DNA from: Escherichia phage CLB_P2
Sequence record: OL770107
Strand: one strand, 5' to 3'
DNA length: 64,000 bases
Numbering within the stretch: the stretch's first letter is position 1; each line of letters begins with the position of its first letter. The notes under the pieces were generated by a model. It saw nothing but the letters and a program-made list of their open reading frames with translations, searched no databases and was not told the DNA's origin. Of the stretch, positions 1,627 to 58,896 are shown in pieces. The position numbers and the translations under genes were made by a program.

Positions 1627-4600
1627 TTAGTTTAACTTAGCTTCAAGTTCTTTTACTTTAGCCGACAGAGTTTTAACTGCTTCAATTAATAGAGCAACTT
1701 GTGCCTGAGTAGAAACTGTCAGAACTTTATTACCTTTGATATCTTCAACTTCACGAATAGCTTCAGGTAATACTTCATTCAATTTCTGTGCAATAACACC
1801 TGCTTCAGTGTGAACAACCTCTCCACCAATATAATCAGCTTTATCATAGATTAAACCATCAAGCTGTTCAACCTTTTCAAGAGCGTTTTCAATTGGTTTG
1901 AAGTTTGATTTCAAACGAATATCAGAACGAATATAAACGTTTGGAGCATTTATATTCATATCTGAATAAGTGTCACCACCTTGGAATCGCATACGGCGAG
2001 AAGCATTAGTCCAAACTTCTAAAAGACCGTCACCAACTTGTCTAAAACCAGTATCGCTATCCCCAATTACAAGTGAGTTACCACCAAACCCGTTTATTGT
2101 GTTAATACCGAAGGCACTTGTTTGTGGTAGCAGTACTTTACCTGGACACTCTAAAGTACCGTCCATTACAAAGCGCCATCTTGCTTGTTGGCCATTAGCA
2201 TTGTCGCCACGTATACGAATAATACCATCACGCCATCCAGCTGTGGTACCAGAACCAACCCAACCAAACTCAAAGGTCTGACGATAACCTGCTGAACCAT
2301 AGTTACTCCACGCTCCGACAATAGGATAATAACTACCTGAATTGGATAAATCACCATGGTCTGCCATAAAGGTGATTTTAGGTTTCATTGCATCTGAGTT
2401 ATCACCCCAGCCTGCAGGTGAACGTGCAGAAGAAACTACACGAGAGGTAATATTACCAAGGTTTGTATTACCGCCTGTAACGTTTAATCCGCCACCAGTA
2501 ATATTCAGACCGTGGTTCATACCAACGCGACCATCAGCCATATTAATAGAGAAAGGTCTTAAGCCATTCCAATCACCATTAGCCGCATCGGGTTTTTCTG
2601 TCGTATTTTTATCTGTAGCTAAAATATAAAAACTTCCACCGTCGTTTCTAAGTAAAGCAGCATTAGAATCTAAATCATTACCTTTAGATTTAATACGCAT
2701 ACCTTTTTGGTTATTGGTAACATATTCACCACGAGTAACAATATCTGATTCACCAGCAGCAAACATTCCGTCAATATTGTTCAGCATTCTTACAGATTTA
2801 CCTACAATATGACCTTCAGGTAATGTTTCTACCAAAGGCTGGATGCCGCTATCCATACCTACTACGGTTACTTTACTATTGCTACTGCATGTATATTCTA
2901 CTACTAAAGAATTAGAATATCCACCCAAATAAACGTAAATATCATAGATATCTTCGCTTGTATTAACCGAAGCAATCTGGGAAATAGCTTCAGAAGTCCT
3001 ATTCCACAACGTAGCATTAAGGCCTTTAGGGTTATTATTACCAGTTCTAAGGATTATTTCAGCTATTGAAGCCTGACCATAACTTTTAAAATTAAATCCG
3101 GAACCACCAAATATTTTAAAAGATACCGTGCCTGTTGACTGCGGAATTTCTACAGTAGCAAATTTATACCAACCTGTAGTAGCACCACCCGACCATCCGC
3201 CCATATTAACTTTATGGTCTAATGTTGAATTCAGGTTTTTAAAGTTGTCTAAGGTAGAACTGCCTGTAATGTTACCATCTGTACCAATACGAATATCAGA
3301 ACCTATTTTAAGAGGCTTGGTTATATCAACAGTATCAGAGTTTAATGCAATACCATGTGAATAAGTATAGTTATGTAAACGAACAACGTTACCGCCGTCA
3401 CCAATACCAAGATACCATTTTGTAACGTCTGCTTTACGTCCTTGGATAAAGTTGGATGCTGCTTGAGATGAAGCATTCAAAACAATACCATCGGAATCCA
3501 TATTAACACGCAACCTACAGTCAGTTTGGACAAATTTACTTACGTTGTCGACTGTAAAAAGTGGACCACCTGTAGATTTATTCCCCATTATAACGGTACC
3601 ATTGGCTAAATTAATAGACAACGGACGGAGGTCGCTTATTCCACCATTTTCACCGGCGTTTTGAAGGGTAGGAATAAGATGGAATGAAGCAGAAGAACCC
3701 GTTTCTGAACGACGGAAAATCAAACCATATTCAGCGTTCCAAATTCTTAATGCGTCAGCAGTACCACCCATTTTAACTTGGCCACTAATTGAAGCGCCGC
3801 CTTGGACAAACAGGCCATTAGTCATGGTAACATTGCCACCAAAAGAACCGGTACCGGATGCACTTATATTTCCGAGACTAGAAAAATGACCTGTTTCAAC
3901 AGAGCCGTTGAACTTGAAGTTAATAGGGCCTACAGTTTCACCGGAAGCCGGATTAGTACGTTGGCCATAGAAATAATATCCTTGTGAATCTGATACTTCG
4001 AATACAGTTTCTCTATTACCGCCACCGGCGTTAAATGAGTTACCCCATGCTTTCATGGTAACGGTATTTTTGTTCTGGCCATTTCGGGTACCAGCGTCCC
4101 AGTTAATGGTTTTTGTACCATCAACACCGGTAGGAGCAGTTAATGCCAATGCAGAAGTATTATTGTTTGCGTTAAGAACTAGGCCGTTATTAACCATTAA
4201 ACGCTGTGTAGTAGAAACTGTGCCGTCTGCTCTAAGATTTAATTCGTTAACCCCGGTCTTAATATTTAAAATACCAGGTTCAATAATCATACCTTCTGCC
4301 ATAGAAATGGCTACACGACCTGTGCCACGGAAATAATGATAAAGTTTACCATTAGAATTATAACCCAAATGGGTTTGGCCATCCCCGGAGTTATTACCAT
4401 CTATTTCGGTTCTAATAGAAACCATAGAAGAATTCTGGCCCGGCAGAAGCCAAGTAAGCCCCTGGTCATTACTACGTCCAAATATGGTTTTGCTTGTACC
4501 GCGGAAACCATCAGTAGTAATAGAAGCAACAGAATAACCTCCACCCACCAAATCAAAATTACCTTGTTTAATATATTTTAAACCGGTCGCGGTATCACCT

Positions 4601-11297: not shown

Positions 11298-11326
11298 GTT
11301 TACTTCTTCCAGGGCCATGATATAAT
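11298..11326 (+). promoter_or_regulatory. sigma70-type early promoter for rnh
   Basis: GTTTAC, 17-nt spacer, TATAAT about 30 nt upstream of the rnh ATG. Confidence 0.55.
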
Positions 11327-11357
11327 AACCTTCTACACTAATTGGACAGAGGTTCAT

Positions 11358-12305
11358 ATGAACGATTTAGATTTTTTACTTCCTGAAGAAGACCAACAAA
11401 AAGATGGATTTTTACTCCTGGATTTCAGCCAAATCATCATGGCTGCGGCTTTCCAAGAATTTGGTGAGAATGCTGGATTTCCTAAAGTAACCACGGCAAT
11501 GCTTCGACATCTCGTGTTGAATTCAATCAAGAAAAACATTAAAGACTTTAAAAAACAAGGTTATAACCAACTAATCATTTGTGTTGATAACTCTAAATCA
11601 GGTTATTGGCGTCGTCGTTATTCTTCTTATTATAAGAAAAACCGTGCCAAGGCACGTGATGAATCACCATTTGATTGGGAAGGCTTATTCACTGCAATGC
11701 ATATTATTGTGGATGAACTGGAACAAAACATGCCTTATATTGTTATGAATATCGATACAATCGAGGCTGATGACCATATTGCTGTATTGACTCGTATCCT
11801 TACGGCTAAAGGCCATCCGGTTATGATTGGTTCTTCTGATGGTGACTTTACCCAACTTCATAAATTCCCTGGTGTAAAACAATGGTCTCCAATGCAGAAA
11901 AAATTCGTCAAAACAAAATCTGGTGATGCTCTGCTTGATTGTGTGACTAAGGTTATTAAAGGTGACCGCAAGGATAACGTTGCAAGTATTAAAGTTCGTG
12001 GTGATTATTGGTTGACAATGGTTGAAGGCGAACGTACTCCTAGCACTCGTGCCAAGGAACTTGAAGCAATTGCTCTTAATTATTATGACCATGATATAAT
12101 TAAAACACTTCTTACTGAGGAACAATATGAACGTTTCTGTGAAAACCAAATCTTAATTGATATGGACTTTATTCCAGATGATATTGTTGCTTTAATTACT
12201 GAAAGATATAATACGTATAACAAACCTTCGAAATCTAAAGTTTATCCTTATTTCGTTAAATCAGGTTTGTCTAAACTAACTGCTACAGTAGCTGATTTTT
12301 ATTAA
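11358..12305 (+). CDS. rnh: RNase H / 5'-3' flap exonuclease
   Basis: 315-aa ORF; motifs shared with T4 RNase H (VDNSKSGYWRR, IEADDHIAV, SSDGDFTQLH, VKQWSP); position between gene 34 and dsbA. Confidence 0.85.
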   Translation: MNDLDFLLPEEDQQKDGFLLLDFSQIIMAAAFQEFGENAGFPKVTTAMLRHLVLNSIKKNIKDFKKQGYNQLIICVDNSKSGYWRRRYSSYYKKNRAKARDESPFDWEGLFTAMHIIVDELEQNMPYIVMNIDTIEADDHIAVLTRILTAKGHPVMIGSSDGDFTQLHKFPGVKQWSPMQKKFVKTKSGDALLDCVTKVIKGDRKDNVASIKVRGDYWLTMVEGERTPSTRAKELEAIALNYYDHDIIKTLLTEEQYERFCENQILIDMDFIPDDIVALITERYNTYNKPSKSKVYPYFVKSGLSKLTATVADFY

Positions 12306-13608: not shown

Positions 13609-14514
13609 ATGTTCAAACGTAAAGACCCTTCCCAACTGGCTGCTCAACTGTCTGCAATGAAAGGTGGTTCTTCTTTCTCTTCCGATGATAAAGCTGAATG
13701 GAAATTGAAAGATGACAATGGTGTTGGTACTGCGGTAATTCGTTTCCTACCTTCGAAAAACGAAGAAAATCCATCTCCATTCGTTAAGCTCGTTAACCAC
13801 GGCTTTAAGAAAAATGGTCAATGGTATATTGAAAACTGTACGTCTACTCACGGTGATTTCGATTCTTGTCCTGTATGTAAATACATGAACCAGAACGATA
13901 CGTATAATACTAATAACGCCGAATACAAACTGATGAAACGTAAAACTTCCTTCTGGGCTAACATCCTTGTTATTAAGGATAGTGCAGTGCCTGCTAACGA
14001 AGGTAAAGTGTTTAAATTCCGTTTCGGACAGAAAATTATGGATAAAATCAACCAGATGGTTGAAGTTGATACTGATATTGGTGAAGTGCCGGTTGACGTA
14101 ACATGTCCGTTTGATGGTGCTAACTTCGTACTGAAATCTAAGAAAGTTGGTGACTTCAAAAACTACGACGATTCCAAATTCATGGGTCAGTCTGAAATTC
14201 CTAACATCAATGATGAAGCTTACCAAGCTAAATTGATGGAAGAAATGCACGACCTTTCTAAACTGCTCGAGTTCAAATCCTTTGAAACTAACGAAGCCAA
14301 GTTTAAGAAAGTTGTTGGTACTGCTGCTCTTGGTGGTGCTGCCGCTAAAGCTTCTGCAGCTGCCGATAAGATTGGTGATGACCTGGACGCATTCAGTGCA
14401 GACCTTGATGCATATGATTCTAAACCGTCTACACCGACCCGTTCCACTACTCCTGAACCATCAGTAAGTCCTTCTGATGACGATGGTTTGGACGACCTGT
14501 TAGCTGGTCTATAA
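13609..14514 (+). CDS. 32: ssDNA-binding protein gp32
   Basis: 301-aa ORF; Zn site [12 protein letters not shown]; LAST-like N-terminus [14 protein letters not shown]; acidic C-terminus [13 protein letters not shown]. Confidence 0.9.
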
Positions 14515-14530
14515 GTTATTGATTTATAAT

Positions 14531-14556
14531 GGGAAGACTTCGGTCTTCCCTTTTTT
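14531..14556 (+). terminator. rho-independent terminator after gene 32
   Basis: GGGAAGAC-TTCG-GTCTTCCC followed by TTTTTT. Confidence 0.7.
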
Positions 14557-14567
14557 GGCATTTAATG

Positions 14568-14596
14568 GTTTACAATGCCTTTAAACATGATACTAT
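14568..14596 (+). promoter_or_regulatory. early promoter cassette (PeSL-like)
   Basis: GTTTAC, 17 nt, TACTAT, then conserved TAGACC..CATGAGGAAATAAAAATG leader with GAGGA RBS. Confidence 0.5.
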
Positions 14597-14625
14597 AGAC
14601 CTATCAACTACATGAGGAAATAAAA

Positions 14626-14994
14626 ATGGAAACTGGTAAATTTTATGTATTAGACCCTGCTGCCAAAAAACAATTCATCGCTGGTAGTCCTGATAACAAT
14701 TCGCGTATGGTTAAGATTATGGAACAACATGGCAGTTCCTTTAAAGTCCTGGGCATGTGTTATATCGACGGTGATTATTTTGTCGAAAAAGTTGAAATGA
14801 AAGATGGTACCATCCTGAAGTCTGTTTATGATAATGCTGACGAGTATTTTGAACTCGCTGAATGGGAATTCAAACACTTCATAGAAGTTGATGGTGATGC
14901 TCCTGCTGTTGATACCCAAACCATTCATGTGCAGGTAAATCATAAAAATGCGGCAGAAGTTGTTGCCTTGATTAAAGCTACCTTTGGAATTTAA
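14626..14994 (+). CDS. hypothetical early protein (tandem paralog A)
   Basis: 122-aa ORF with promoter and RBS; shares DGD-FV-K, EYFEL-E-EF and IH-V motifs with the next ORF. Confidence 0.5.
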   Translation: METGKFYVLDPAAKKQFIAGSPDNNSRMVKIMEQHGSSFKVLGMCYIDGDYFVEKVEMKDGTILKSVYDNADEYFELAEWEFKHFIEVDGDAPAVDTQTIHVQVNHKNAAEVVALIKATFGI

Positions 14995-14996
14995 AA

Positions 14997-15380
14997 ATGA
15001 AAATCGGTAAAAAATACGAACTTCGTCCTGAGCGTATCAAATCTTTTATCAATATCAGCCCTATCAATAATAATGATATGGTTGATATTATCCAAGAAAA
15101 CGGTGGATGGTTTGAAGTAAAGGACGTTATGACCTCAGATGGGGATGAATTTGTAACTAAAATCAAATGTGCTAATGGTGAGGTTTTTAGTTCGGACGGG
15201 ACACTAGAGGAATATTTTGAATTGCATGAAGATGAGTTCTATTGCTTCCGTGAATACGTTGAACAAGATGAAGTTGATGAACCCGTTTCTAAGGCCGGTG
15301 TGACCCAAATCCATTGCGTTGTCACTGAACAGAACGTTGACCAAATCATTGAACTTTTGCAAAAAACTTTTAAGGCCTAA
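14997..15380 (+). CDS. hypothetical early protein (tandem paralog B)
   Basis: 127-aa ORF, 2 nt after the previous stop; paralogous to 14626..14994. Confidence 0.5.
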   Translation: MKIGKKYELRPERIKSFINISPINNNDMVDIIQENGGWFEVKDVMTSDGDEFVTKIKCANGEVFSSDGTLEEYFELHEDEFYCFREYVEQDEVDEPVSKAGVTQIHCVVTEQNVDQIIELLQKTFKA

Positions 15381-15381
15381 T

Positions 15382-15642
15382 ATGACTAAAGATGATTTCC
15401 TGGATGCCGTAGAAAAAGCCAGTGAGAAATTTGAAGTGATGGGTGTACGAGTTCATAAAGACCGAAATTATGGGCTCGATGTCCAAACGTATTCGTTATG
15501 GCTTGTAGGTGAACATAGTCTTGTAACCAGCTTAGTTATGGGTGTTGATGCTCAACCCTTACTGGTTAAATTTAGAAGTATGGAAAAAGCTACCAAAGAA
15601 ATGATTAAGCTTGGTAAATGGCTTGATAAAATTCAAAAATAA
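15382..15642 (+). CDS. hypothetical protein
   Basis: About 86-aa ORF from ATG at 15382 (table ORF extends upstream into the previous gene). Confidence 0.4.
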
Positions 15643-15644
15643 GT

Positions 15645-15673
15645 GTTTACAAGGTCTGTAGATATGATACTAT
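15645..15673 (+). promoter_or_regulatory. early promoter cassette (PeSL-like)
   Basis: GTTTAC, 17 nt, TACTAT, leader ..CTATCAACTAATGAGGAAAATAAAATG. Confidence 0.5.
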
Positions 15674-15701
15674 AGACCTATCAACTAATGAGGAAAATAA
15701 A

Positions 15702-15929
15702 ATGGCTAAGGTTAATATTGATATCGTTGATTTTGAATACACTTACGAAGTTATCCGTAATCGTTATCCTTCTTTGACTATGACTTATATCAAAGACACA
15801 CAATTCTGTAGTATGCAAATTGAAGTTCAAGGTCCTCTTGAAGACCTTACCCGCTTTATGGCTGATGAATATTGTGATGGTATGCATGCTGAAGACGCTG
15901 AATTTTATATGGGCTTAATTCAAAAATAA
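15702..15929 (+). CDS. hypothetical protein
   Basis: 75-aa ORF with cassette promoter and GAGGA RBS. Confidence 0.45.
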
Positions 15930-15931
15930 GT

Positions 15932-15961
15932 GTTTACCTAAGGCTATGGTAGTGATACTAT
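15932..15961 (+). promoter_or_regulatory. early promoter cassette (PeSL-like) with hairpin
   Basis: GTTTAC, 18 nt, TACTAT; inverted repeat AAGGCTAT...ATAGCCTT brackets the -10 region. Confidence 0.5.
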
Positions 15962-15987
15962 AGCCTTATCAACTTGAGGAGAATAAA

Positions 15988-16227
15988 ATGAAATTACAAC
16001 GCGAATCAATCAAAGATTCTGAAGTTAAAGGCAAATGGTACTTCACAATCCAAGGTAACAATCCGGAAGCTCTGGAAAAAGCCGAACAAGCTTTGTGTGA
16101 AATGGGTTGGAAAGATGAGTGTGATGGGTGTCCTCTTTATGAAGATGGTAGCTCATCTGGTTTCTGGATTCACCATTCTGATGTTGACCAATTTAAAGCC
16201 GACTGGAAAGTCGCTAAGAAAGCGTGA
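15988..16227 (+). CDS. hypothetical protein (Cys-rich)
   Basis: 79-aa ORF; CEMGWKDECDGCP motif. Confidence 0.45.
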   Translation: MKLQRESIKDSEVKGKWYFTIQGNNPEALEKAEQALCEMGWKDECDGCPLYEDGSSSGFWIHHSDVDQFKADWKVAKKA

Positions 16228-16237
16228 GGAAAATATA

Positions 16238-16567
16238 ATGCTTACTGAATACACTTGCTTTGCTAAAGATGATGCACATCCTGAACTGATTCTTGAAGTT
16301 AAGGTTAATACACTTGAACAAAAATTTGATTGGAGCCTTTACATCTATCCTAAAAATAATATTGATGGTCCACAGAAATATACGCTTAACGACAAGTGCA
16401 TTAGCGGTATCATTGGATACGGGTCTAGCGAAAGCAAATATTCATTAGAAGATATTCGCCAATCACGTTGTGCCGTCGCTTATTTTGATACTAGTACCAT
16501 TAAATATCTTTACAAATTGGTTCTTGATATTCGCAAAGATTTTACCGCAATTAAAAAATGCAGTTAA
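16238..16567 (+). CDS. hypothetical protein
   Basis: About 109-aa ORF from ATG at 16238 with GAGGA RBS (table ORF begins at an upstream alternative start). Confidence 0.4.
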   Translation: MLTEYTCFAKDDAHPELILEVKVNTLEQKFDWSLYIYPKNNIDGPQKYTLNDKCISGIIGYGSSESKYSLEDIRQSRCAVAYFDTSTIKYLYKLVLDIRKDFTAIKKCS

Positions 16568-17360
<793 letters not shown>

Positions 17361-22532: not shown

Positions 22533-23677
22533 TTGAATTATATGATAACTTGATGACTTTGGTTAAAAACTCGACTAAATCTAAGTTCTTCTTTAAAGAC
22601 TTCCAGAGTGCGCTAGGAGTCAACTATCGCATCTTTAGTTATAACTATGCATCGTACAGTGATTGGTTGGAAGACGGCGCACTAGAGTGCCGAGGCATTA
22701 TGTTTGAAATGGACGAGAATGGTCCTGTACGTATCGCTGCTCGTCCTATGCAAAAGTTCTTTAATCTCGATGAAAACCCACTGACTATTGGTTTGGATTT
22801 ATCACAAGAAAATATTGATTTGGTTATGGCCAAGGAAGATGGTTCCTTGATTTCTACCTTCATGGATAGACAATATCTTTCTGTTAAATCTAAAGGCTCT
22901 ATCCATTCATCGATGGTACATGATTCTTTACGTTTCCTTCGTCTCCCTGAAAACGAGGCCTTCGCTGCTCGTTTAGAAGAAATTACTAAAGCAGGCTATA
23001 CATGTAACCTCGAGTATGTTTCGCCTACTAACCGTATTGTGCTGGCATACCAAGAAACAAACCTTATCTTACTGAACGTTCGTAATAACGAAACAGGTGA
23101 GTATATCCCTTACGCTGAACTGTTTAAAGATGGCGCTCTGCGTAAGCATTTGGTTAAAAGCTATGAACTCGCTGAAGGTGATTTTGTTGACAATATCCGT
23201 AAACAAGAGGGTATTGAAGGCTTTATCTTTGTACTTAAAGATGGCACGTTCTTTAAACTCAAAACCGCTTGGTATAGCGCACTGCATCATACCAAAGATT
23301 CCATTAACAATAACGAACGTTTGTTTGAAGTTGTAGTGGCTGGTGGAACCGATGACCTCCGAGGTTTGTTCAGTACTGATTCATTTGCTATTGAGAAAAT
23401 CAATGCATTTGAACGTATTCATTTAGACTACTTAGAACAGTCCTTGGCTTTGTTAGAAGCAGCATATTCTCAGCTCAAGGGTCGTGACCGTAAAGACTAC
23501 GCTGTTACCGGTCAGTTAATCCTCAAAGACTTCCCAGGGCTGTTCTCTATTCTTATGCAGGCGTACGTAGGCGGTATTAATTATGATACGGTCGTAGACC
23601 AGATTAACTCTGTGTTCTTGAAAAATCATAAGGCCCAAATCCCTGAAAAATATTTGAAAGAAATTGTGATAGAGTAG
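22529..23677 (+). CDS. rnlA: RNA ligase 1
   Basis: 382-aa ORF; N-terminal block [28 protein letters not shown] as in T4 Rnl1; KEDGSL adenylation lysine motif; ATGA overlap with denA. Confidence 0.85.
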   Translation: [382 protein letters not shown]

Positions 23678-23705
23678 TTTACATCTCCTCATGATGTGTT
23701 AGTAT
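23677..23705 (+). promoter_or_regulatory. early promoter cassette (PeSL-like)
   Basis: GTTTAC, 17 nt, TAGTAT; inverted repeat CTCCTCAT...ATGAGGAG spans promoter to RBS. Confidence 0.45.
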
Positions 23706-23735
23706 AGACTTACCAACTAATGAGGAGAAAACAAA

Positions 23736-24236
23736 ATGAATATGCAAATGATTACTAACGAAATGGTTGTTAAAGCTTTTGGTGACTCTACTGACGGTAT
23801 CCAAGTTTTTAAAGGTTCTCGTGCAGTAGGGTACCTAACCGATCTTCGTGTTACTTTAGCTAAAAATGCTAAAAAGAAAATTAAGCAAAAAGAATACTCT
23901 ACCCGTTATGCAGAAGAAAAGCGTGAAGCCATGCCTGAAGCTGTTAACTCTATGGTTGAGTTTCTCCAAAACAACCTTTCCAAGTATGATGCTGAGGTAT
24001 TCATTAATATCAGCCAACCTAATGTCAAAATCGCAGGAATCACTTTCTATTTGATTTGCGACCCATTAAGCGATAAGTTTAATCGCCTTGGCATTTCGAG
24101 TCCTTACCATACCGCTGAAGAATTGTGCGTGATGTTCGAAACGTATAAAATCCAGTGTGAAAACCCTAAAACGGTTCTTATCAACTCCCTGTCACGTGAT
24201 GACATCATCGAGATTATTACCAAATGTCTAAATTAA
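23736..24236 (+). CDS. alc: Alc-like host transcription inhibitor (positional call)
   Basis: 166-aa ORF (T4 Alc 167 aa) directly downstream of rnlA; identity rests on size and synteny only. Confidence 0.5.
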   Translation: MNMQMITNEMVVKAFGDSTDGIQVFKGSRAVGYLTDLRVTLAKNAKKKIKQKEYSTRYAEEKREAMPEAVNSMVEFLQNNLSKYDAEVFINISQPNVKIAGITFYLICDPLSDKFNRLGISSPYHTAEELCVMFETYKIQCENPKTVLINSLSRDDIIEIITKCLN

Positions 24237-24864: not shown

Positions 24865-25031
24865 TCGAGGCTTGTGCTGACGGGTGGGATATCGTTCGAT
24901 TTGGTTTTGCATGCTTTTGTTTTGGAATCGTGTTCAGCATGTGTATGAACGGTATTTTTGGAAAGTAGTGTACAAACTCTTGGGAGCAGAGTATAATGCT
25001 CCTACGGATTATAAAAATTGAGGAAATGACT

Positions 25032-25489
25032 ATGAAAATATTATGGTATGTTGAGAACGCTAATAATATCATGAAGTGTAAAGACGAATTCTTCCAAAAT
25101 CTGGCCCGAATTGGTTCTTGCCGTAAAACACCTTTGGAAGGTAAAGCTCGATTCTTTATTTCAGAATGTAAAGACAAAGCTATTACAGAAGTTGAATACT
25201 ACGCCCCATGGAATGATTTCCCGAGCAGAGTGTTGAAATTATCCAAGCCTATTCCTTCTGATGTGTGGAATTCAATCTTAGATGTTACTGCATGCTATGA
25301 AGAAAACCAATCACTTCATGAAGAAAAAGAACGTATTCGCGAACTGGTAAAAAGTTTTGAATACGCGGCTAAACGCCATGGCCAAATGCAATCCGCAGTA
25401 ACCCTTGGCGATGTTCCTGAAAGTGTTGCTTATGAATCCGGTAAAATCCTTAAAACCTGCCGTGAAGAACTTTATAAGGAGCTCGGTGT

Positions 25490-27598: not shown

Positions 27599-27637
27599 GT
27601 TTACAACACGGTAGGACTGTGGTATAGTAGTCCTACC
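27599..27637 (+). promoter_or_regulatory. early promoter cassette (PeSL-like) with hairpin
   Basis: GTTTAC, 18 nt, TATAGT; perfect 9-bp inverted repeat GGTAGGACT...AGTCCTACC encloses the -10. Confidence 0.5.
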
Positions 27638-27658
27638 GAAACAAATGAGGAAATCGAA

Positions 27659-28213
27659 ATGGGTAAGTTCTTTGAAGAGCGTAAGTTTTATAAGTTCATT
27701 AGCGAATACACTAAAAACAAATTCACTAATAACGGCTCTTATGGCCTCAATACAGCTTTTGCCAAGTATGTAGGTATGAACCCGTTTGAAGTTGAAATTG
27801 ATTACCATAATGGGCGTGAACGTGTAAGCCGAATTCGTGTATATGACGAGATGATGTTTGTCGACCCTAGCAAAATCACAGGTAATCCTGATGATGCAAA
27901 TGCTGTTCTTTTTAATTCAACAGGCCTTTTTGGCCATGAATTCGATTACTTTATTGAAGTGGTACGTCCACTGGCCTCGGTGAGTATTCCTGAAAATGGT
28001 GGACCTAAACCAGTAAAAGCCACTGCGGATTGGAAAGTGCTTATCGTTAAAAATGGTAAGATTGAAGTTCATTCTCGCCATAACACAAAGGAACAAGCCG
28101 ACCGTCAAGCCGAAGAGCTTTTGACCAGTTCGTTCCAACAAGTGTGTTATATTGTTAAAGGCGACGTTACCCAAGCTACCACTACCAAACAACTTAAGTT
28201 GGAGACCATCTAA
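27659..28213 (+). CDS. hypothetical protein
   Basis: About 184 aa from ATG at 27659 with GAGGA RBS. Confidence 0.45.
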   Translation: MGKFFEERKFYKFISEYTKNKFTNNGSYGLNTAFAKYVGMNPFEVEIDYHNGRERVSRIRVYDEMMFVDPSKITGNPDDANAVLFNSTGLFGHEFDYFIEVVRPLASVSIPENGGPKPVKATADWKVLIVKNGKIEVHSRHNTKEQADRQAEELLTSSFQQVCYIVKGDVTQATTTKQLKLETI

Positions 28214-30880: not shown

Positions 30881-30909
30881 GTATACATCTCCGGTAGGCA
30901 TGATACTAT
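30881..30909 (+). promoter_or_regulatory. early promoter cassette (PeSL-like)
   Basis: GTATAC, 17 nt, TACTAT, followed by the 37-nt leader GTACCAAATAATACGAAAACAAACTGGAGAATAAAATG. Confidence 0.45.
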
Positions 30910-30950
30910 AGACATGTACCAAATAATACGAAAACAAACTGGAGAATAAA

Positions 30951-31319
30951 ATGAAAATCAATCTTAACTCATACATCAAAGGTAAAGACCACGACGGTTA
31001 CAAAGCCATTGAAACTAAAGAGATGCAATGGCGCTTGTACAAAGAACAATTTGAATTTGTAGGTTGTATGACTCCTGAAGGTCCTTCCGATGACTTCTCT
31101 TGGAAAATTTTGGTAACAAACTTTTTTACTGGCGATACCTACGAACTGAAAACTATCATAACCGGTAAGATTCGTTGTAAGACCTATGAAGATGAAGAAA
31201 CCGGTTATTCTGAAGATGTTACATGGTATCAAAATGGTCGTATCACTACAGATAACCTGATCGAAAAAATGAATGCCAAAGGTGAATTAAATTTAGATAA
31301 TTGGATTAAAGTTGCATAA
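30951..31319 (+). CDS. hypothetical protein
   Basis: 122-aa ORF behind cassette leader with GGAG RBS. Confidence 0.45.
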   Translation: MKINLNSYIKGKDHDGYKAIETKEMQWRLYKEQFEFVGCMTPEGPSDDFSWKILVTNFFTGDTYELKTIITGKIRCKTYEDEETGYSEDVTWYQNGRITTDNLIEKMNAKGELNLDNWIKVA

Positions 31320-31323
31320 AACG

Positions 31324-31352
31324 GTTTACTTTGGTACAGGTTGTGTTATTAT
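31324..31352 (+). promoter_or_regulatory. early promoter cassette (PeSL-like) with hairpin
   Basis: GTTTAC, 17 nt, TATTAT; inverted repeat GGTACAGGT...ACCTGTACC; same 37-nt leader as the cassette at 30881. Confidence 0.5.
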
Positions 31353-31393
31353 AGACCTGTACCAAATAATACGAAAACAAACTGGAGAATAAA

Positions 31394-31759
31394 ATGAACT
31401 ACATCAACTTCGAACGTAAATATGTTTCTAACGGTATCGCTGGTTCTTCTGAAGTTATTTGTCTGTGGAAACACAACAACGGCACAGTGTGTGAAATCGA
31501 ACAGTGCATGACTCCTAACTACGTTTATATGCGCTTTGAAAATGGTATCACAGTTTCAATCACTATGGAAGGTTCTACTTTTAAAATCGCTTTGGACGAT
31601 GATTTCCGTCAACGTGATTTAGGTACCCATCCTTGCTGGAACGGTTCTAATCGTAAGCTTCTGGTTAAAACCTGGATTCGTCACATCCTGAGCAACCGTG
31701 CTAAACCTGAACACCTGGAAGCAATCTTTGATGTAGTTCTGAATGAATTTGATATCTAA
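31394..31759 (+). CDS. hypothetical protein
   Basis: 121-aa ORF behind the identical leader. Confidence 0.45.
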   Translation: MNYINFERKYVSNGIAGSSEVICLWKHNNGTVCEIEQCMTPNYVYMRFENGITVSITMEGSTFKIALDDDFRQRDLGTHPCWNGSNRKLLVKTWIRHILSNRAKPEHLEAIFDVVLNEFDI

Positions 31760-37654: not shown

Positions 37655-39778
37655 ATGGAAAATTTAAACGAAGTTTTTGATAGTGATTCCGCTAAAAACT
37701 ATCCAGTAACAAATCTTAAGCCAGGCTCAGGTATCCCACAGATTTTCTCTATCCAAGCACCAGGTAATGATAACCTGGTTGCTCGTATGGTATCTTATGC
37801 GTCTCAAGGAGACGCTATTAAAATGGTTAAGCCTGGCGACAAATATGTCCACGTTATTCTAATGAGTTTGTCAAGCAAGGGTGCTCCGGCTGAACTCAAA
37901 GGTGGGCTTGGTTCCGACCCGCTTGGTGCATTGAATACTATTTTCGATACGATATATGAACAAGTAAACAAACTTAAAATGGATGCAGTTTTGTTCCGTT
38001 TCCCTACCAAGAAAATGAAAGGTAAGGGTCCTACTGTTCAGCGGGTATTAGCTCGTTTGGTGATGGCACGTACCGGTGGTAAGTTTAAAGTTGTTGATAA
38101 CATGTTCCAATTCAGTGGAAAACATACCTATGTTCTTTTAGTACGTCGCGGCACTAATATCGAAGATATCAAGGGTATGCCTGAAATTGATGCTGACCTT
38201 TATACCAAGGTTGAGTCTAAAGTTGGTGAAGTTTATGTTTCTAAGAAAACTGGCCGGGCCGTAAGTAAGGTCGAAGCCGTGGCGGCATCTATTGCACAGG
38301 TTGAAGAGAAACGTACCGATAAGGCTGTTATCTCTCGTACTAAGATTTCTCGTCGTATGGCTGCAGCAGCACAGTATTCTACTGCCGAACCTGAAACTTT
38401 ATCCCCTAAAGAATTGCAGGTTTATAATGAGTTTGAAGCTTCTGTACCTGTTCATTCGGCTGAAGGTCCTGAGAACGAAGGTATTGAACAAATTAGCCAG
38501 AACTTTAAAAAAGGTGCTATTACTAAAATGCGTCAGGCCTCTCAGTTTAAATCTAAGAGTGAGGACCTTGCCAACTTTAGATACACCATTGCTCTCACAC
38601 ACGCTTTAATGACTGATAGTAAATTTAAACTAAATTATGCTAATAGAGATAAACAAGGGTTTGAAATTTACTCTAATAATATGGCATTTTTTAATACGGA
38701 AGTCGATAGACTTTTAAGCGGCCTTTCTCAAATCAATACTACCAATAGTCTGGATATTATTAAGAGAATTGTTAATAACCTGAGTGCCCGTTTTCAGGGG
38801 TCTCCTTCAGAGAAAGCATCCCGAATTGCTTTCGCTATGGAAGCCGTTTATAAACTGATTAACGATTCTATTAGCGATGCATATGCTTATTCAGGCGAGC
38901 TCATTAAACCTAAGGGCTTGACCAAAGACGAAAGTAATGCCATTATTGAATATTGTGCGGCTGAATATGCTCCTATGAACTTATTCCTTTTAGGTAAACC
39001 TGAATCCGAAAACAATACAACAGCTATTAAATTGATTAAGGATTTAGACTCAGCATTTACCAAGGGTATTAAACTTCCTAAAGGTACTATTTTGTATCGT
39101 GGTCAGGATTTACCATACAAAATTCTGCGCCATAATATTGATAACAAAACCTTTTACTTTAAGAACTTTGTATCCGCTTCATTAAAGCCTAATATCTTTG
39201 GTGAATTTGGTAAAAATTATATGGCCCTCGACAACCAAGCAGTTTTTGTTGGTGATGAAGGTTCTTTATCCTCCGCCGATGAGTTGTTTAAATTGGCCAG
39301 TGGTAGTTCATCTGACGTAGGTGAAGTTGATGATGAAGAGGTAGAATGGGAAGAAGACGAGTTTGGTAATCCAATTGCACCTGAAGGCCCTGCAGACAGG
39401 ATTGCTGAAATTGGTATGGTTATTCGAGGTGCTGAAGCAGTTAAAGTTATCGCTCCTGGTGACCTTACAGAATATGCCGAAGAAGCGGAAATTATCCTTC
39501 CGCGCGGATTATTGTTGAAGGTTGATAAAGTAGCAGCTTTTGCTATGAATGATAGGGTATCTCACAAATACCTTATGGAAGCTACAGTGACATCTCCTTC
39601 AGAACTCAGTGAGTCCGTTTACGATGGTGACCATCTGATGGAAACCGGCGAAGTTAAATTGATGAATGGGTTTAAAGAATTCCTAGTTTCAGAATCTGTT
39701 TCAGAAAGTAACGAGGCTATGGAAATCCTTGCTGCATCTTTGGACATCTCTTCTTTACCAAATAAATTCAAAATGTAG
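37655..39778 (+). CDS. Alt-like ADP-ribosyltransferase (paralog 2)
   Basis: 707 aa; same N-terminal module and C-terminal YRGQ / SAS / EAEIILPRG motifs; unrelated central 250 aa and acidic insert DDEEVEWEEDEFG. Confidence 0.75.
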   Translation: MENLNEVFDSDSAKNYPVTNLKPGSGIPQIFSIQAPGNDNLVARMVSYASQGDAIKMVKPGDKYVHVILMSLSSKGAPAELKGGLGSDPLGALNTIFDTIYEQVNKLKMDAVLFRFPTKKMKGKGPTVQRVLARLVMARTGGKFKVVDNMFQFSGKHTYVLLVRRGTNIEDIKGMPEIDADLYTKVESKVGEVYVSKKTGRAVSKVEAVAASIAQVEEKRTDKAVISRTKISRRMAAAAQYSTAEPETLSPKELQVYNEFEASVPVHSAEGPENEGIEQISQNFKKGAITKMRQASQFKSKSEDLANFRYTIALTHALMTDSKFKLNYANRDKQGFEIYSNNMAFFNTEVDRLLSGLSQINTTNSLDIIKRIVNNLSARFQGSPSEKASRIAFAMEAVYKLINDSISDAYAYSGELIKPKGLTKDESNAIIEYCAAEYAPMNLFLLGKPESENNTTAIKLIKDLDSAFTKGIKLPKGTILYRGQDLPYKILRHNIDNKTFYFKNFVSASLKPNIFGEFGKNYMALDNQAVFVGDEGSLSSADELFKLASGSSSDVGEVDDEEVEWEEDEFGNPIAPEGPADRIAEIGMVIRGAEAVKVIAPGDLTEYAEEAEIILPRGLLLKVDKVAAFAMNDRVSHKYLMEATVTSPSELSESVYDGDHLMETGEVKLMNGFKEFLVSESVSESNEAMEILAASLDISSLPNKFKM

Positions 39779-39807
39779 TTTACAACACCACAAGGATGTG
39801 GTACTAT
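39778..39807 (+). promoter_or_regulatory. early promoter cassette (PeSL-like)
   Basis: GTTTAC, 18 nt, TACTAT, then CATGAGGAGAACATTATG leader. Confidence 0.45.
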
Positions 39808-39835
39808 TACCTTACACAAACATGAGGAGAACATT

Positions 39836-40126
39836 ATGAAATCTGCATTCCGTTTTAATGGTCAAGAACTGGTAGTTGAAAACGTTATCCCTGCTTCTGA
39901 AGAGTTCGACAGTGCAGTAGGTAATGAATTACGTCGAGTTTTCGGCGAAGACAAACAGTTCGACTTACGCCCGGTTGAAAATTTTTCACAACCTGAGCAA
40001 ACCGAAAATATTTTTAATGGTGTAGTAACCGGTCAGCTTGAATCTGAAGCTCCTATTTCTATCACGGTCTTTGTTAAAAAGCAGCCATTAATGACCGCTG
40101 CAGGTTTTATCTCGTTCCGTAAATAA
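39836..40126 (+). CDS. hypothetical protein
   Basis: 96-aa ORF behind cassette promoter. Confidence 0.4.
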   Translation: MKSAFRFNGQELVVENVIPASEEFDSAVGNELRRVFGEDKQFDLRPVENFSQPEQTENIFNGVVTGQLESEAPISITVFVKKQPLMTAAGFISFRK

Positions 40127-54789: not shown

Positions 54790-54819
54790 GTTTACAAGTT
54801 AAAATTCTCATGTTACTAT
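54790..54819 (+). promoter_or_regulatory. early promoter for the small HTH-like ORF
   Basis: GTTTAC, 18 nt, TACTAT in the 70-nt divergent spacer. Confidence 0.45.
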
Positions 54820-54848
54820 TGAATAGTTCAAATCACAAGAGAACTGTT

Positions 54849-55061
54849 ATGGATAAGATTAAAGTACATTTTTTACATGAATCGGGTATGAATTTTATTG
54901 ATATTGCTAAAAAGATTGGCGGAACTGCCAGAGATATGGCTAAAGCTTGGGCCGAAGTTGAGAATGCTAAGGCCAAGTTTAAAGCAAGAGAGAAAGTCGT
55001 ATATCGTAAAAGATTAAACAACAAAAAAGTCAGCGCAAAGCGCGTTTTTGGTCTAAAGTAA
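54849..55061 (+). CDS. small HTH-like basic protein
   Basis: About 70 aa from ATG at 54849; helix-turn-helix-like FIDIAKKIGGTARDMAKAW; lysine/arginine-rich C-terminus. Confidence 0.4.
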   Translation: MDKIKVHFLHESGMNFIDIAKKIGGTARDMAKAWAEVENAKAKFKAREKVVYRKRLNNKKVSAKRVFGLK

Positions 55062-56187: not shown

Positions 56188-56218
56188 TAAAGGGACCTTA
56201 CGGTCCCTTTTATTTTTC
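56188..56218. terminator. bidirectional terminator between rnlB and the head gene operon
   Basis: AGGGACC-TTAC-GGTCCCT flanked by A- and T-runs. Confidence 0.6.
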
Positions 56219-57490
56219 TAGTGGTGGAAGTTTAACACCGAGATAAGAACTCAACTGACTTTGATTAGCCATTTTGTCCATATCCGAACCATCAATAATG
56301 CGAGCTTCTTTATCGTCCTTAGCGACGGTATAAGGGTTTGCAGTCAATGCATAACGAGCAAGCAATGCTACTGTAGGTTGTAAGCTTTCCGGGTCAACAA
56401 TAACCTTAAATTCACCTACTGAAGTATCACCTTCTTCATCAACCACATCCAAACCTTCCGTATAAGGCGCATAATATAAAGATGCGACCGTCTGTCCTTC
56501 ACCCATCTGAGCATTTACACCAACAATAACATAATCACATGGACTATTCATATCGGCATAAAGAGGTAGACCATTCTTTAATACACCATAAGCCAATTCA
56601 TCTTGGTCTTCCTTTTTCTCAACCCAACCGGAAGCGGCGAGAATAGCAGCACAACGAGAACTAGCTACTGCATAAGTCCCAGCGAAAGAAGTTTGACGTT
56701 GGACGGCAGAGTTCATCTCACACATGTAATAATATAATGTACGAGCACGGTCCTGGGCATTATCATAACGTGGGTTAGTAAGGTCCAATACGCCCTTTTC
56801 AGAAACACCTTGGACTTTAAAACGAGAACTCACCGTAATTAATGACTGTAATACGTCCTTATTAATTTCTTCTGCCATTTGAATGCCTAGCAGATTTTCA
56901 ATGAAATTAGGAGCATTAAATCCGTTTGATTCTAGGTCTTGGGCCAATTCGACTGTCAACGAAGTTTTCAGTTTACGTGATTTAACTTCAGATTGCCATT
57001 TGTCAATACGGAAGCCTGCTTCAGCAATTTCAGGATGGCCTTGTTCGAATTTAGAAGTAATAGCAGCATCTGATACCATACGAATATGTCCGGCCGCCAC
57101 TGCTTCAGAAATAACTTCACCGAGGTCGGTTTCCGTGGTTCCGGCGAAAGGAGATGCTTCTAGAACTTTAAACACTACACTTTCAAACTGGAACATATCG
57201 CCGGCTGCATAAGCTGTAGACGAATCGGTAAATTCAGGAATATTTTCACGTTCCGACATACCAATCTGACCTGCAAATGTGGCGCCACCAAGATAAGTCA
57301 TTTTGTCGTCAGGATTAAGTACACGAACCCCGTACAGAGCGGCCACAGGTTGGCTTGTTTTTTGTTCAGCAACTAGGGCTTTAAAGATTCGTTTATTAGT
57401 TGCTTGGGTGTATGAAAGAAGAGCAGGACGGCCAACCGAGTTGGCAGCCGTCAATGTGGATTCTTTAATTAGGTCTATAATCTTAGACAT
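56210..57490 (-). CDS. gp24-like head vertex protein, diverged paralog
   Basis: 426 aa; about half of positions shared with the upstream gp24, incl. RKLKTSLTVELAQDLESNGF, INKDVLQSLITVS, YAPYTEGLD and LTANPYTVAKDDKEARIID. Confidence 0.8.
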   Translation of the reverse strand: MSKIIDLIKESTLTAANSVGRPALLSYTQATNKRIFKALVAEQKTSQPVAALYGVRVLNPDDKMTYLGGATFAGQIGMSERENIPEFTDSSTAYAAGDMFQFESVVFKVLEASPFAGTTETDLGEVISEAVAAGHIRMVSDAAITSKFEQGHPEIAEAGFRIDKWQSEVKSRKLKTSLTVELAQDLESNGFNAPNFIENLLGIQMAEEINKDVLQSLITVSSRFKVQGVSEKGVLDLTNPRYDNAQDRARTLYYYMCEMNSAVQRQTSFAGTYAVASSRCAAILAASGWVEKKEDQDELAYGVLKNGLPLYADMNSPCDYVIVGVNAQMGEGQTVASLYYAPYTEGLDVVDEEGDTSVGEFKVIVDPESLQPTVALLARYALTANPYTVAKDDKEARIIDGSDMDKMANQSQLSSYLGVKLPPLEK

Positions 57491-58773
57491 TAATCAGCCT
57501 CGTAAATAATTGCTGGAAGTTTAACACCAAGCAGATAGGACATATTACTCTGACCGGCCATTAAATCCATATTGGTTGCATCGATAACACGAGCTTCTTT
57601 ATCGTCTTTAGCTACGGTGTACGGGTTAGCGGACAGTGCATAACGAACCATCAGAGAAATAGAAGGCTGTAATGAATCCGGGTCGACAATAACCTTATAA
57701 GCACCAACGTGTTCTTGGTCGTCTAAATCCAGGCCTTCTGTATATGGGGCGTAGAAAATAGAACCGACAACTTCATTACCACCATAGTTCTCTTTAACAC
57801 CTACGATAACATAATCCAATGGGCTGTTAACGTCGCAGAACAGAGGTAATCCATTCAACAAATAACCATAGGCCGTTTCTGGGAGCCAATTATTATCTTC
57901 AGGTCTATGTTTTAACCAGCCAGAACCTGCAAGCATTGCAGCCACACGACTTGAAGCCACAACAAACGTACCTGAATAAGAAGTAGTTTTCTGGATTTCA
58001 GAATTCATCTCACAAACAATTTCATAAAGTTTACGTGCAGATTCTGGAGCACTATCATAAGTCAAATCGATGATGCCATTATCAGATACACCCGTAACTT
58101 TATAGCGTTTGGATACGGTTATTAGAGATTGCAGAACATCTTTATTAATTTCATCTGCCATTACCGTAGCCAGGAGGTCTTCTAAGAATGCAGGGGCGTC
58201 GAAGCCATTTGATTCCATATCCTGTGCTAATTCTACGGTCAAAGCAGTCTTCAATTTACGGGTCTTAACAGGGGCATTCCATTTATTAACCTGGAATACA
58301 GCATCAGAGATTTCTACATCACTCTCTTCAAATTTAGTGGTATGGGCTGCATCAGGAACCAAACGACACGTTAATGACACCAAACCTTCTTGAAGAGCAT
58401 CGGCCAATTCTGTAGCGCTAGTGGATGCGAGTGGGCTTGCTTGAAGAGCCTTATAAACCACATTCTGATACTTAAAGTAGTCACCCTTGGCAATCGCCTG
58501 GGCTTTATCTGTGAGTTCCGGGATAGTTTCACGGTCTTTAGAACCAACTTCACCACCATAAACTGCACCGGTTTGGAAACTGAATTCATTATCAGGGGTA
58601 AGATATTTGACACCATACAACGCAGCGATAGGTTGGTTTGTACGTTGTTCAGCGATGATATCGCGATAAATTAGTTTAGTGGTAGCACGGGTCAAAGCAA
58701 CAAGATTAGGGCGACCCAATGAGTTGCTGGTAGTAGTTGTTGACTCGCGCAGTAATTCGTTAATCTTTGCCAT
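57490..58773 (-). CDS. 24: head vertex protein gp24
   Basis: 427-aa ORF (T4 gp24 427 aa); N-terminus MAKINELLRESTTTTSNSLGRPNLVALTRATTKLIY nearly identical to T4 gp24. Confidence 0.9.
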   Translation of the reverse strand: MAKINELLRESTTTTSNSLGRPNLVALTRATTKLIYRDIIAEQRTNQPIAALYGVKYLTPDNEFSFQTGAVYGGEVGSKDRETIPELTDKAQAIAKGDYFKYQNVVYKALQASPLASTSATELADALQEGLVSLTCRLVPDAAHTTKFEESDVEISDAVFQVNKWNAPVKTRKLKTALTVELAQDMESNGFDAPAFLEDLLATVMADEINKDVLQSLITVSKRYKVTGVSDNGIIDLTYDSAPESARKLYEIVCEMNSEIQKTTSYSGTFVVASSRVAAMLAGSGWLKHRPEDNNWLPETAYGYLLNGLPLFCDVNSPLDYVIVGVKENYGGNEVVGSIFYAPYTEGLDLDDQEHVGAYKVIVDPDSLQPSISLMVRYALSANPYTVAKDDKEARVIDATNMDLMAGQSNMSYLLGVKLPAIIYEAD

Positions 58774-58801
58774 TGCGCTTTCCTTATTGAGGGTATATGT
58801 T

Positions 58802-58809
58802 TATTTATA
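58802..58809 (-). promoter_or_regulatory. late promoter core TATAAATA for gene 24
   Basis: Minus-strand TTTTATAAATAAAC about 30 nt upstream of gp24 start. Confidence 0.5.
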
Positions 58810-58815
58810 AAAGTT

Positions 58816-58845
58816 GTTTACAGCAAGGTTCCCACGTGTTACTAT
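58816..58845 (+). promoter_or_regulatory. early-promoter-like element pointing antisense into gene 23
   Basis: Plus-strand GTTTAC, 18 nt, TACTAT, followed by the hairpin at 58863-58880. Confidence 0.35.
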
Positions 58846-58862
58846 AGTACAGAAACAAGAAT

Positions 58863-58880
58863 GGGAGACCGAAGTCTCCC
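58863..58880 (-). terminator. hairpin terminator after gene 23
   Basis: GGGAGAC-TTCG-GTCTCCC on the minus strand followed by ATTCTTGTTTCTG. Confidence 0.5.
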
Positions 58881-58896
58881 ATAATAAGGTTAGGTC

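Follow-up and report, generated by a model that had tools for sequence, protein, structure and literature searches.

Candidate promoter-early stem-loop cassettes between gene 32 and frd of a JS98-like T4-type coliphage

The gene 32-frd interval and its promoter cassettes

We describe here a repeated regulatory cassette in a 64,000-nucleotide stretch of Escherichia phage CLB_P2 (sequence record OL770107; referred to below as the window), with particular attention to three copies that lie between gene 32 (13609-14514) and frd (16577-17158). The cassettes are probably T-even-type promoter-early stem-loops (PeSLs), composite regulatory elements of a kind to which an earlier note on this DNA had assigned them, and their anatomy of promoter, stem-loop, Shine-Dalgarno (SD) sequence and ATG is as published (PMC4122927; PMC2839356). 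Over bases 14400-16700 the sequence matches Dhakavirus CLBP2 (OZ035781.1) with 100% identity, and the phages dhaeg, JS98 and JS10 with 94-97%, which indicates that the window is a portion of a JS98-like T4-type coliphage.

The interval holds six small open reading frames (ORFs), all on the plus strand and arranged in three transcription units with one cassette heading each, rather than the three ORFs, one to a cassette, that had been counted before. The first unit comprises frd.2a (14626-14994; 122 residues, Pfam FRD2), its tandem paralogue frd.2b (14997-15380; 127 residues, Pfam FRD2), and an orf232-like gene (15382-15642; 86 residues, phrog_4423, no Pfam match). The second is a single-gene module between cassettes 2 and 3, frd.3 (15702-15929; 75 residues, Pfam Phage_FRD3), and the third contains frd.1 (15988-16227; 79 residues, Pfam DUF5417) and an orf228-like gene (16238-16567; 109 residues, phrog_8592).

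Cassette 1 (14568-14625, plus strand) consists of GTTTAC, a 17 nt spacer, a TGn motif, the -10 hexamer TACTAT (14591-14596), AGACCTATCAACT and GAGGA, and leads directly into the frd.2a ATG at 14626. Directly upstream of it, a terminator scan and folding identify the intrinsic terminator of gene 32 (14531-14556, plus strand), in which GGGAAGAC-UUCG-GUCUUCCC is followed by a T-run. Cassettes 2 (15630-15701) and 3 (15917-15987), also on the plus strand, both begin with the same 21 nt, AATTCAAAAATAAGTGTTTAC, an exact repeat located at 15630 in the former and at 15917 in the latter, and continue in cassette 2 with GTTTAC at 15645, a -10 at 15668-15673, an SD sequence and the frd.3 ATG at 15702, and in cassette 3 with GTTTAC at 15932, a -10 at 15956-15961, the SD sequence GGAG and the frd.1 ATG at 15988. 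At all three start codons GAGGA or GGAG lies 6-8 nt ahead of the ATG. The two 21-nt copies are 287 bp apart and flank frd.3, and the repeat covers the last three codons (IQK and stop) of two unrelated ORFs, one of which is the orf232-like gene, whose final codons IQK* fall within it.

That the three cassettes at 14568, 15645, and 15932 are copies of one element, as the earlier note proposed, is confirmed in two ways. The pattern GTTTAC-N15-20-TACTATAG has four matches in the window (14568, 15645, 15932, and 58816) where 0.00 are expected from 100 shuffles, and an unbiased repeat search recovers a 63-nt family with three copies at 14563-14625, 15640-15702, and 15928-15990, the second and third being 79% and 62% identical to the first. 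The same cassette had been said to recur at seven further sites (23677, 27599, 30881, 31324, 39778, 54790, and 58816); the core of -35, TGn and -10 is indeed present at all seven, with GTATAC in place of GTTTAC as the -35 of 30881, but the TAGACC..CAACT box occurs among these at 23677 only, so that it is common to four copies (14568, 15645, 15932, and 23677) and the remainder share the promoter core alone. Extra copies at 11298 and 24968 bring the total to 12 in 64 kb, every one of them on the plus strand.

The common layout is an A-rich region in the -40s, GTTTAC, a spacer of 17-18 nt, TGn, a TAnnnT -10 and a C-rich discriminator with C at -3/-2, followed about 25 nt further on by a strong SD sequence and then ATG. 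T4-type early promoters have GTTTAC at -36 to -31 and a preference for C at -3 to -1 (PMC1524935), and have been described as 'uber' UP/-35/TGn/-10 promoters (PMC2988021). At the sequence level the cassettes have these features, from the A-rich UP region and GTTTAC to TGn and a -10 in which -11 is A and -7 is T, and their shared core is the published T4-type early promoter consensus. By this match to the consensus, the promoters would be expected to fire immediately after infection.

Hairpins embedded in the promoters

A significant hairpin formed between the spacer and the -10/+1 region is found in two of the three focal cassettes and in six of the 12 in the window, as judged by fold z-scores computed against dinucleotide shuffles. 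In cassette 2, AGGTCTGTAG (15652-15661) pairs with CTATAGACCT (15670-15679) through 10 bp, one of them a G.U (-14 kcal/mol, z = -3.55), and in cassette 3, TAAGGCTATGGTA (15939-15951) pairs with TACTATAGCCTTA (15956-15968) over 13 bp including one G.U, with a GUGA loop (-18 kcal/mol, z = -5.32). The earlier note had reported the second of these stems, without mention of the first, and had placed the -10 of 15932 in its loop; in the best fold this hexamer is instead the first 6 nt of the 3' arm. At 14568, which had been counted with the others, there is no stem around the -10 (z = -0.39), and the gene 32 terminator stands alone 12 nt upstream.

The other four significant hairpins lie in plus-strand cassettes elsewhere in the window. 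The cassette at 27599-27661 contains a 10-11 bp hairpin around the -10, CGGTAGGACT/AGTCCTACCG at 27609-27638 (-18 kcal/mol, z = -3.76), and that at 31324-31396 has a 12-bp hairpin, TTTGGTACAGGT/ACCTGTACCAAA at 31330-31366 (-18.8 kcal/mol, z = -5.1). The cassette at 24968-25034, with GTGTAC...TATAAT, folds into a hairpin spanning 24978-25008, with the -10 enclosed (-13.7 kcal/mol, z = -2.4), and in the cassette at 23677-23738 (-17.6 kcal/mol, z = -3.83) the spacer pairs further downstream, as described below. Three cassettes are unstructured in the fold test, namely 14568, 30881 (30881-30953, plus strand), in which the hairpin is degenerate, and 39778 (39778-39838, plus strand), which has only a weak spacer hairpin (CCACA/UGUGG).

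Summed over the 12 window promoters, the longest Watson-Crick stems enclosing the -10 total 70, as against 46.8 +/- 3.0 when the spacer and downstream bases are shuffled (z about 7.8). The arms are wholly different among cassettes yet complementary within them, as in AGGTCT/AGACCT, AAGGCTAT/ATAGCCTT, GGGAACAT/ATGTTCCC and the stems of 27599 and 31324, and in 56 non-redundant cassettes from the window and related loci the pairing of arms with their own partners scores 6.04, compared with 4.98 +/- 0.14 for pairing with the arms of other cassettes, and the observed score is reached in none of 500 permutations. In front of frd.1, the promoter stems of CLBP2 (the cassette 3 stem), IME341 (ATGGGGC/GGTCCCAT), and T4 (AGGGTAGTAG/CTATTACCCT) are unrelated to one another in sequence although they occupy the same register. 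The hairpin is thus statistically real and its arms covary, and the likeness among cassettes does not reduce to a generic sigma70 similarity with no conserved downstream structure, which the earlier note had raised as a doubt about its own proposal. Internal non-Watson-Crick positions read on the sense strand are G.T in 11 cases and A.C in three (about seven versus two independent events), a bias that favours RNA or top-strand structure over a cruciform without being conclusive.

None of the embedded stems is followed by a U-run, and canonical intrinsic termination by them was rejected at the sequence level for this reason. If transcription begins about 7 nt past the -10, the stems end between -1 and approximately +8 relative to the start predicted for the cassette, whose own transcript is therefore unable to form the hairpin.

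Whether a cassette contains a hairpin depends on what lies upstream of it. The hairpin-bearing promoters at 15645, 15932, 27599, and 31324 start 2-4 nt past the stop codon of a co-directional upstream ORF, and at 23677 the upstream stop codon overlaps the -35 hexamer; the exception is 24968, which bears a hairpin though it is 103 nt downstream of the nearest upstream ORF. Conversely, the hairpin-less 14568 and 30881 are preceded by a stand-alone UUCG-loop terminator with a U-run, and the hairpin-less 11298, 54790, and 58816 face away from a minus-strand gene. A scan of IMG/VR for GTTTAC-N17-18-TACTATAG gave matches that, among those listed, were mostly chance occurrences in unrelated contigs, and the context statistics were for this reason redone on T4-sized contigs and homology-derived loci only, where 466 kb of T4-like sequence yielded 76 non-redundant cassettes; the result is unchanged between the broader and the restricted set. 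Cassettes abutting an upstream ORF (n = 49) have a median embedded energy of -13.7 kcal/mol, with 63% at or below -10 kcal/mol and an upstream T-run in 2%, whereas those not abutting one (n = 24) have a median of -1.4 kcal/mol, with 4% at or below -10 kcal/mol and an upstream T-run in 58% (Mann-Whitney p = 2e-9). Embedded hairpins and stand-alone terminators are thus alternatives set by context, as expected of a composite promoter-terminator, and we therefore argue that the hairpin acts on RNA arriving from upstream.

A second design is also present, in which the early part of the spacer, right after the -35, is complementary to the 5' untranslated region (5'UTR) including the SD sequence, so that the -10 and +1 are in the loop. 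In the window there is one such cassette, 23677, where TCTCCTCAT (23684-23692) pairs with the cassette's own SD region ATGAGGAGA (23720-23728), and further examples are ATCTCCTGTAG/CTACAGGAGAT and TTCTCCTCTAGTTG/CAACTAGAGGAGAA. At least seven perfect spacer-to-SD pairs are found in 10 of 82 non-redundant cassettes compared with 2.5 expected (permutation maximum 6), and here too the arms covary. For 23677 the SD is predicted to be unpaired with a probability of 0.00 when the RNA comes from read-through and of 0.82 when it starts at the cassette itself, so that a promoter-in-hairpin form of translational control is a prediction for this cassette. The three focal cassettes show no such switch, with predicted accessibilities going from 0.84 to 0.40, 0.62 to 0.62, and 0.42 to 0.49 between read-through RNA and own transcript, and since accessibility does not rise, this form of control is not predicted for them. 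The PeSL papers (PMC2839356 and PMC4122927) are silent on a spacer-to-SD variant.

Rearrangement of the interval among related phages

Comparison of fifteen related 32-frd intervals, with junctions taken from BLAST end-points, reveals at least eight architectures, and the possibility that the cassette-flanked ORFs might be invariant across relatives, which would have spoken against shuffling, is set aside by variation in both their order and their presence. With P denoting a promoter cassette, CLBP2, JS98, and dhaeg share the order P frd.2a frd.2b orf232, P frd.3, P frd.1 orf228, and dhabil has this order minus frd.2a. In IME341 and 04086, frd.2a is behind frd.3 with its own cassette (GTATAC..GGGAACAT-GATA-ATGTTCCC), in Gaprivervirus phages frd.3 comes before frd.2a-orf232, and T4 has a terminator, P, frd.3, frd.2, P, frd.1. 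PSD9 is without orf228, and in JS98 and IME341 an additional ORF directly before orf228 is inserted at an SD-ATG motif. Overall, frd.2a is not at its CLBP2 position in dhabil, IME341, 04086, or PSD9, and frd.3 precedes frd.2 in T4 and Gaprivervirus but follows it in CLBP2.

In five of nine rearrangements a junction falls inside a promoter cassette. The relocated frd.2a module is joined at AACATGATA, which is the extended -10 of cassette 1 and lies 16-21 nt into that cassette; the frd.3 module has a 5' junction 8 nt ahead of the -35 of cassette 2 and a 3' junction 6-18 nt ahead of the frd.3 stop codon; and a replacement of cassette 3 has its junction between the last frd.3 codons and the frd.1 SD. 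Exchange between cassettes is also evident in their sequences, with the frd.3 cassette (cassette 2) of PSD9 carrying the spacer of cassette 1, and cassette 1 of VR5 being a chimera joined in CATGATA. A half-cassette relic, GATACTATAGACCTATCAACT, consisting of a -10 and discriminator with no -35, is found in IMGVR_UViG_2974741249_000001 (1420-1445), directly upstream of an intact promoter orthologous to 27599. In the window itself, the 30881 and 31324 cassettes differ at just two bases between the -10 hexamer and the ATG and have an uninterrupted match of 41 nt that ends in ATGAA, and the ORFs behind them encode unrelated proteins of 122 and 121 residues (BLASTP E = 0.04). The copies of the 41-nt repeat are 443 bp apart and flank the ORF at 30951-31319, providing a substrate for its excision; for mini-circles of the PeSL kind, the 21-nt repeat around frd.3 is likewise a potential substrate.

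The other four of the nine events involve an SD-ATG motif only, and in the first three of them the junctions were placed exactly at such motifs: the insertion of an 83-residue ORF in JS98, the deletion of orf228 in PSD9, the frd.2a/frd.2b indel, and a 101-residue insertion in IME341. At the starts of frd.2a and frd.2b, 20 nt that take in the SD-ATG and the first codons are repeated with 85% identity (14621-14640 and 14992-15011), and the junction of the dhabil frd.2a deletion sits in this repeat, so that what recombined there were the 5' ends of the paralogues, not promoters. Linkers other than the cassettes are therefore also used in recombination, and a caveat to the shuffling of genes by recombination between cassettes, as the earlier note had it, is that SD-ATG motifs do as much recombination work as the cassettes in the 32-frd interval; the part of that proposal that stands is carried by the five cassette junctions, the chimera and the converted spacer.

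The modules being rearranged do not appear to be newcomers, as had been suggested. Because their products belong to the Pfam families FRD2, Phage_FRD3, and DUF5417, and because T4 carries frd.3, frd.2, and frd.1 in the same interval, these genes are better regarded as long-standing T-even residents than as recent acquisitions. The accompanying suggestion that they are candidates for host-takeover or anti-defence functions finds no backing either, with PADLOC, NCBIfam, and sequence matches to solved structures in the Protein Data Bank (PDB) for the flanked proteins giving nothing significant that indicates either role, PHROGs placing them in families of 'unknown function' only, and Pfam yielding only FRD2, FRD3, and DUF5417. 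The best PDB sequence match of orf228 is to a designed protein (E = 0.015) and was regarded as noise, and the depositor label 'PemK/MazF toxin' on the orf228 orthologue of EAWsc9 (2561-2902) is unsupported for the window protein by Pfam, NCBIfam, PADLOC, or PDB. As a separate observation, the T4 sequence (NC_000866) has at approximately 3025-3093 of the locus compared here, on the minus strand, a short ORF, MFAPYIMAAVMLVCLYLLIKAC, with its own SD and encoding 22 residues of hydrophobic character; it is located between the early promoter upstream of frd.1 and frd.1 itself, and is missing from the RefSeq feature table there.

Interpretation and relation to known systems

The cassettes are well accommodated by a PeSL model. 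Host sigma70 RNA polymerase would transcribe each cassette right after infection, giving a transcript predicted to be without the hairpin, and where the -35 abuts an upstream stop codon the complementarity of the spacer to the -10/+1 region would allow read-through RNA to fold with -14 to -19 kcal/mol. On that RNA the embedded hairpin could act as an attenuator or insulator, or as a stabiliser of the 3' end. A cassette together with its ORFs would then constitute a self-contained expression module. By the comparative evidence, conserved blocks of 20-40 nt (the stop codon/UP/-35 segment, TGATACTATAG, and the SD-ATG) are homology patches for the phage recombination system, at which modules have been moved, replaced, or converted among relatives. 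The sequence comparisons support both the identity of the cassettes as putative PeSLs and, with the SD-ATG caveat, their role as probable recombination linkers, and the context-dependent alternation of hairpin and terminator lends indirect support to attenuation of upstream transcription.

Several points weigh against this interpretation. Promoter activity and the +1 positions are those predicted from the consensus, any strong T4 early promoter would need to have much of what the cassettes share, and the sequence downstream of the -10 is common to just four window copies. Cassette 1 is missing an embedded hairpin altogether, that of 27599 is weaker in IME341 and IME281, and in four of nine rearrangements SD-ATG motifs, and no promoter, supply the two junctions. 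On a rival reading the cassettes would be ordinary T4-type early promoters (PMC1524935, PMC2988021) whose likeness is convergent, given that strong sigma70 promoters have to resemble one another, with shuffling due to generic short-homology recombination at any conserved signal, mainly the translation initiation motif, and no special mobile element would be involved. We think this unlikely, as identity extends beyond functional positions, in the 21-nt repeat over codons of unrelated ORFs and in the 41-nt 5'UTR run ahead of unrelated ORFs, and as spacer conversion and chimeric cassettes are seen; moreover, promoter strength alone does not predict a hairpin that is specific in its arms and dependent on context.

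The missing U-run counts against the attenuating role, which is carried over by analogy from a single RB49/phi1 construct, and together with stems that end too early for the cassette's own transcript to form them it would fit a post-transcriptional action on read-through RNA, in which the hairpin would either shield the 3' ends left on upstream messages by cleavage in the A-rich 5'UTR or hide the SD, restricting translation of the downstream gene to the transcript of its own promoter. The latter is what is predicted at 23677, the excess of cassettes with spacer-to-SD complementarity of at least 7 bp points the same way, and there is precedent in T4 e, soc, 49, and I-TevI (PMC3014915). However, SD accessibility is not switched in the three focal cassettes, and the sole experiment on a PeSL stem-loop saw reduced downstream expression that its authors read as termination (PMC2839356); we regard a post-transcriptional role as possible, if on balance doubtful. 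It is very improbable that the inverted repeats act in DNA, extruding from AT-rich promoter DNA as cruciforms or hairpins on which endonuclease VII or another structure-specific nuclease would act to create recombination hot spots. The repeats do coincide with rearrangement junctions, and Arbiol et al. speculated that the stem-loop might be a target of a recombination protein (PMC2839356), but the non-Watson-Crick positions, mostly G.T on the sense strand, would read as mismatched A.C in the opposite arm if a cruciform formed, and the dependence on an abutting co-directional gene and the alternation with terminators suit an RNA role better. The G.T bias is itself suggestive at most, given the small number of independent events, and this too has to be set against the PeSL interpretation we favor.

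PeSL cassettes have been described in RB49/phi1 (Arbiol et al. 2010, PMC2839356) and in T4/PST and KVP40/nt-1 (Comeau et al. 2014, PMC4122927). In the 2010 paper, the RB49/phi1 elements were shown to have promoter activity, stem-loop-dependent attenuation, and mini-circles, and JS98 is mentioned there just for PeSL-like sequences near g43. The correspondence is close: a repeated intergenic unit made up of an AT-rich stretch containing a stop codon, -35 and -10 hexamers, a stem-loop, and finally SD and ATG; a stem-loop overlapping the -10 as one of the described positional classes, with G-T pairs in stems; placement before small genes of unknown function; and insertion, deletion or replacement junctions in or beside cassettes, along with half-cassette relics. 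The promoter consensus of the T4/PST elements, TTTACW-N17-TAYWAT (PMC4122927), is also the same. There are differences, in that the Dhakavirus/JS98 lineage was uncatalogued before, the T4/PST figure draws stems just upstream of the promoter whereas most CLBP2 stems are embedded in the spacer and -10, and the RB49 stems are polyG/polyC and the CLBP2 stems are not. In addition, the terminator activity and mini-circles reported for RB49/phi1 were shown by experiment, whereas for the CLBP2 cassettes they would be predictions.

Comparison with other systems helps to place the cassettes. They share with T4 early promoters (PMC2988021; PMC1524935) GTTTAC at -36 to -31, the A-rich -40s, TGn, A at -11, T at -7, and C at -3 to -1, but that consensus includes neither complementary spacer and discriminator arms nor shared 5'UTR blocks. 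In T4 e, soc, 49, and I-TevI a late promoter is situated within a helix that sequesters the SD, silencing early read-through (PMC3014915). Cassette 23677 and about 12% of the sampled cassettes have the same arrangement, with the SD in the 3' arm and the 5' arm upstream of the transcription start, such that only the transcript of the proximal promoter should be translatable; the internal promoter is early rather than late, however, and the three focal cassettes do not sequester the SD. Lambdoid morons and integron gene cassettes likewise provide small accessory genes with their own expression signals, but the PeSL type has no integrase or attC site as integron cassettes do, and it differs from morons in that recombination seems to be linked by the regulatory sequences themselves (PMC2839356).

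These findings extend the PeSL-type organisation of early accessory regions to the JS98/Dhakavirus group, some of whose phages were isolated for therapeutic use, and add two quantitative rules to the original PeSL papers, the alternation of hairpin and terminator by abutment and the subclass with spacer-to-ribosome-binding-site pairing. The rules should be useful for annotating early transcription units and predicting exchangeable small-gene modules, and can inform the design of insulated expression cassettes in engineered T4-type phages. No new kind of system is revealed, and no function is given to the flanked genes. A tentative extension, which we hold with less conviction than the PeSL assignment and which may well prove wrong, is that T-even early-promoter hairpins are a general insulation device and not terminators, present solely at promoters joined straight onto the end of a preceding gene, with a sizeable subclass pairing spacer and SD, such that read-through RNA is silent or trimmed to a stable 3' end and the small genes are expressed from their own promoter only. 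If true, this would be an early-promoter counterpart of the T4 lysozyme hairpin, and would explain how promoter-plus-ORF modules can land anywhere in an early operon with their neighbours undisturbed.

The remaining early-promoter cores of the window, all on the plus strand and without a hairpin, are found at 11298-11360 (GTTTAC-17-TGn-TATAAT), divergent from a long minus-strand ORF; at 54790-54851, facing away from a minus-strand gene; and at 58816-58881, with the full consensus GTTTAC-18-TGn-TACTAT, between minus-strand genes of 427 and 519 residues. Downstream of the last of these the plus strand has no ORF, a correction to the earlier note, and the promoter is directed, in antisense, at the 3' end of the 519-residue gene. 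About 10 nt past its predicted start is a hairpin, GGGAGAC-CGAA-GTCTCCC, which resembles the terminator of the 519-residue gene seen from the opposite strand. At Rfam gathering thresholds the whole window has no matches, so that neither the cassettes nor the 58816 hairpin fit a curated RNA family, and ARAGORN finds no transfer RNA or transfer-messenger RNA in the window. Back to back with the 58816 early promoter, on the minus strand and just upstream of the 427-residue gene, is TATAAATA (58800-58809), which we take to be the T4 late-promoter motif. That gene (57490-58773) adjoins another minus-strand ORF of 426 residues (56210-57490), beside the 519-residue ORF, and judged on size and position the pair is a candidate tandem duplication of a capsid vertex gene beside the major capsid gene.

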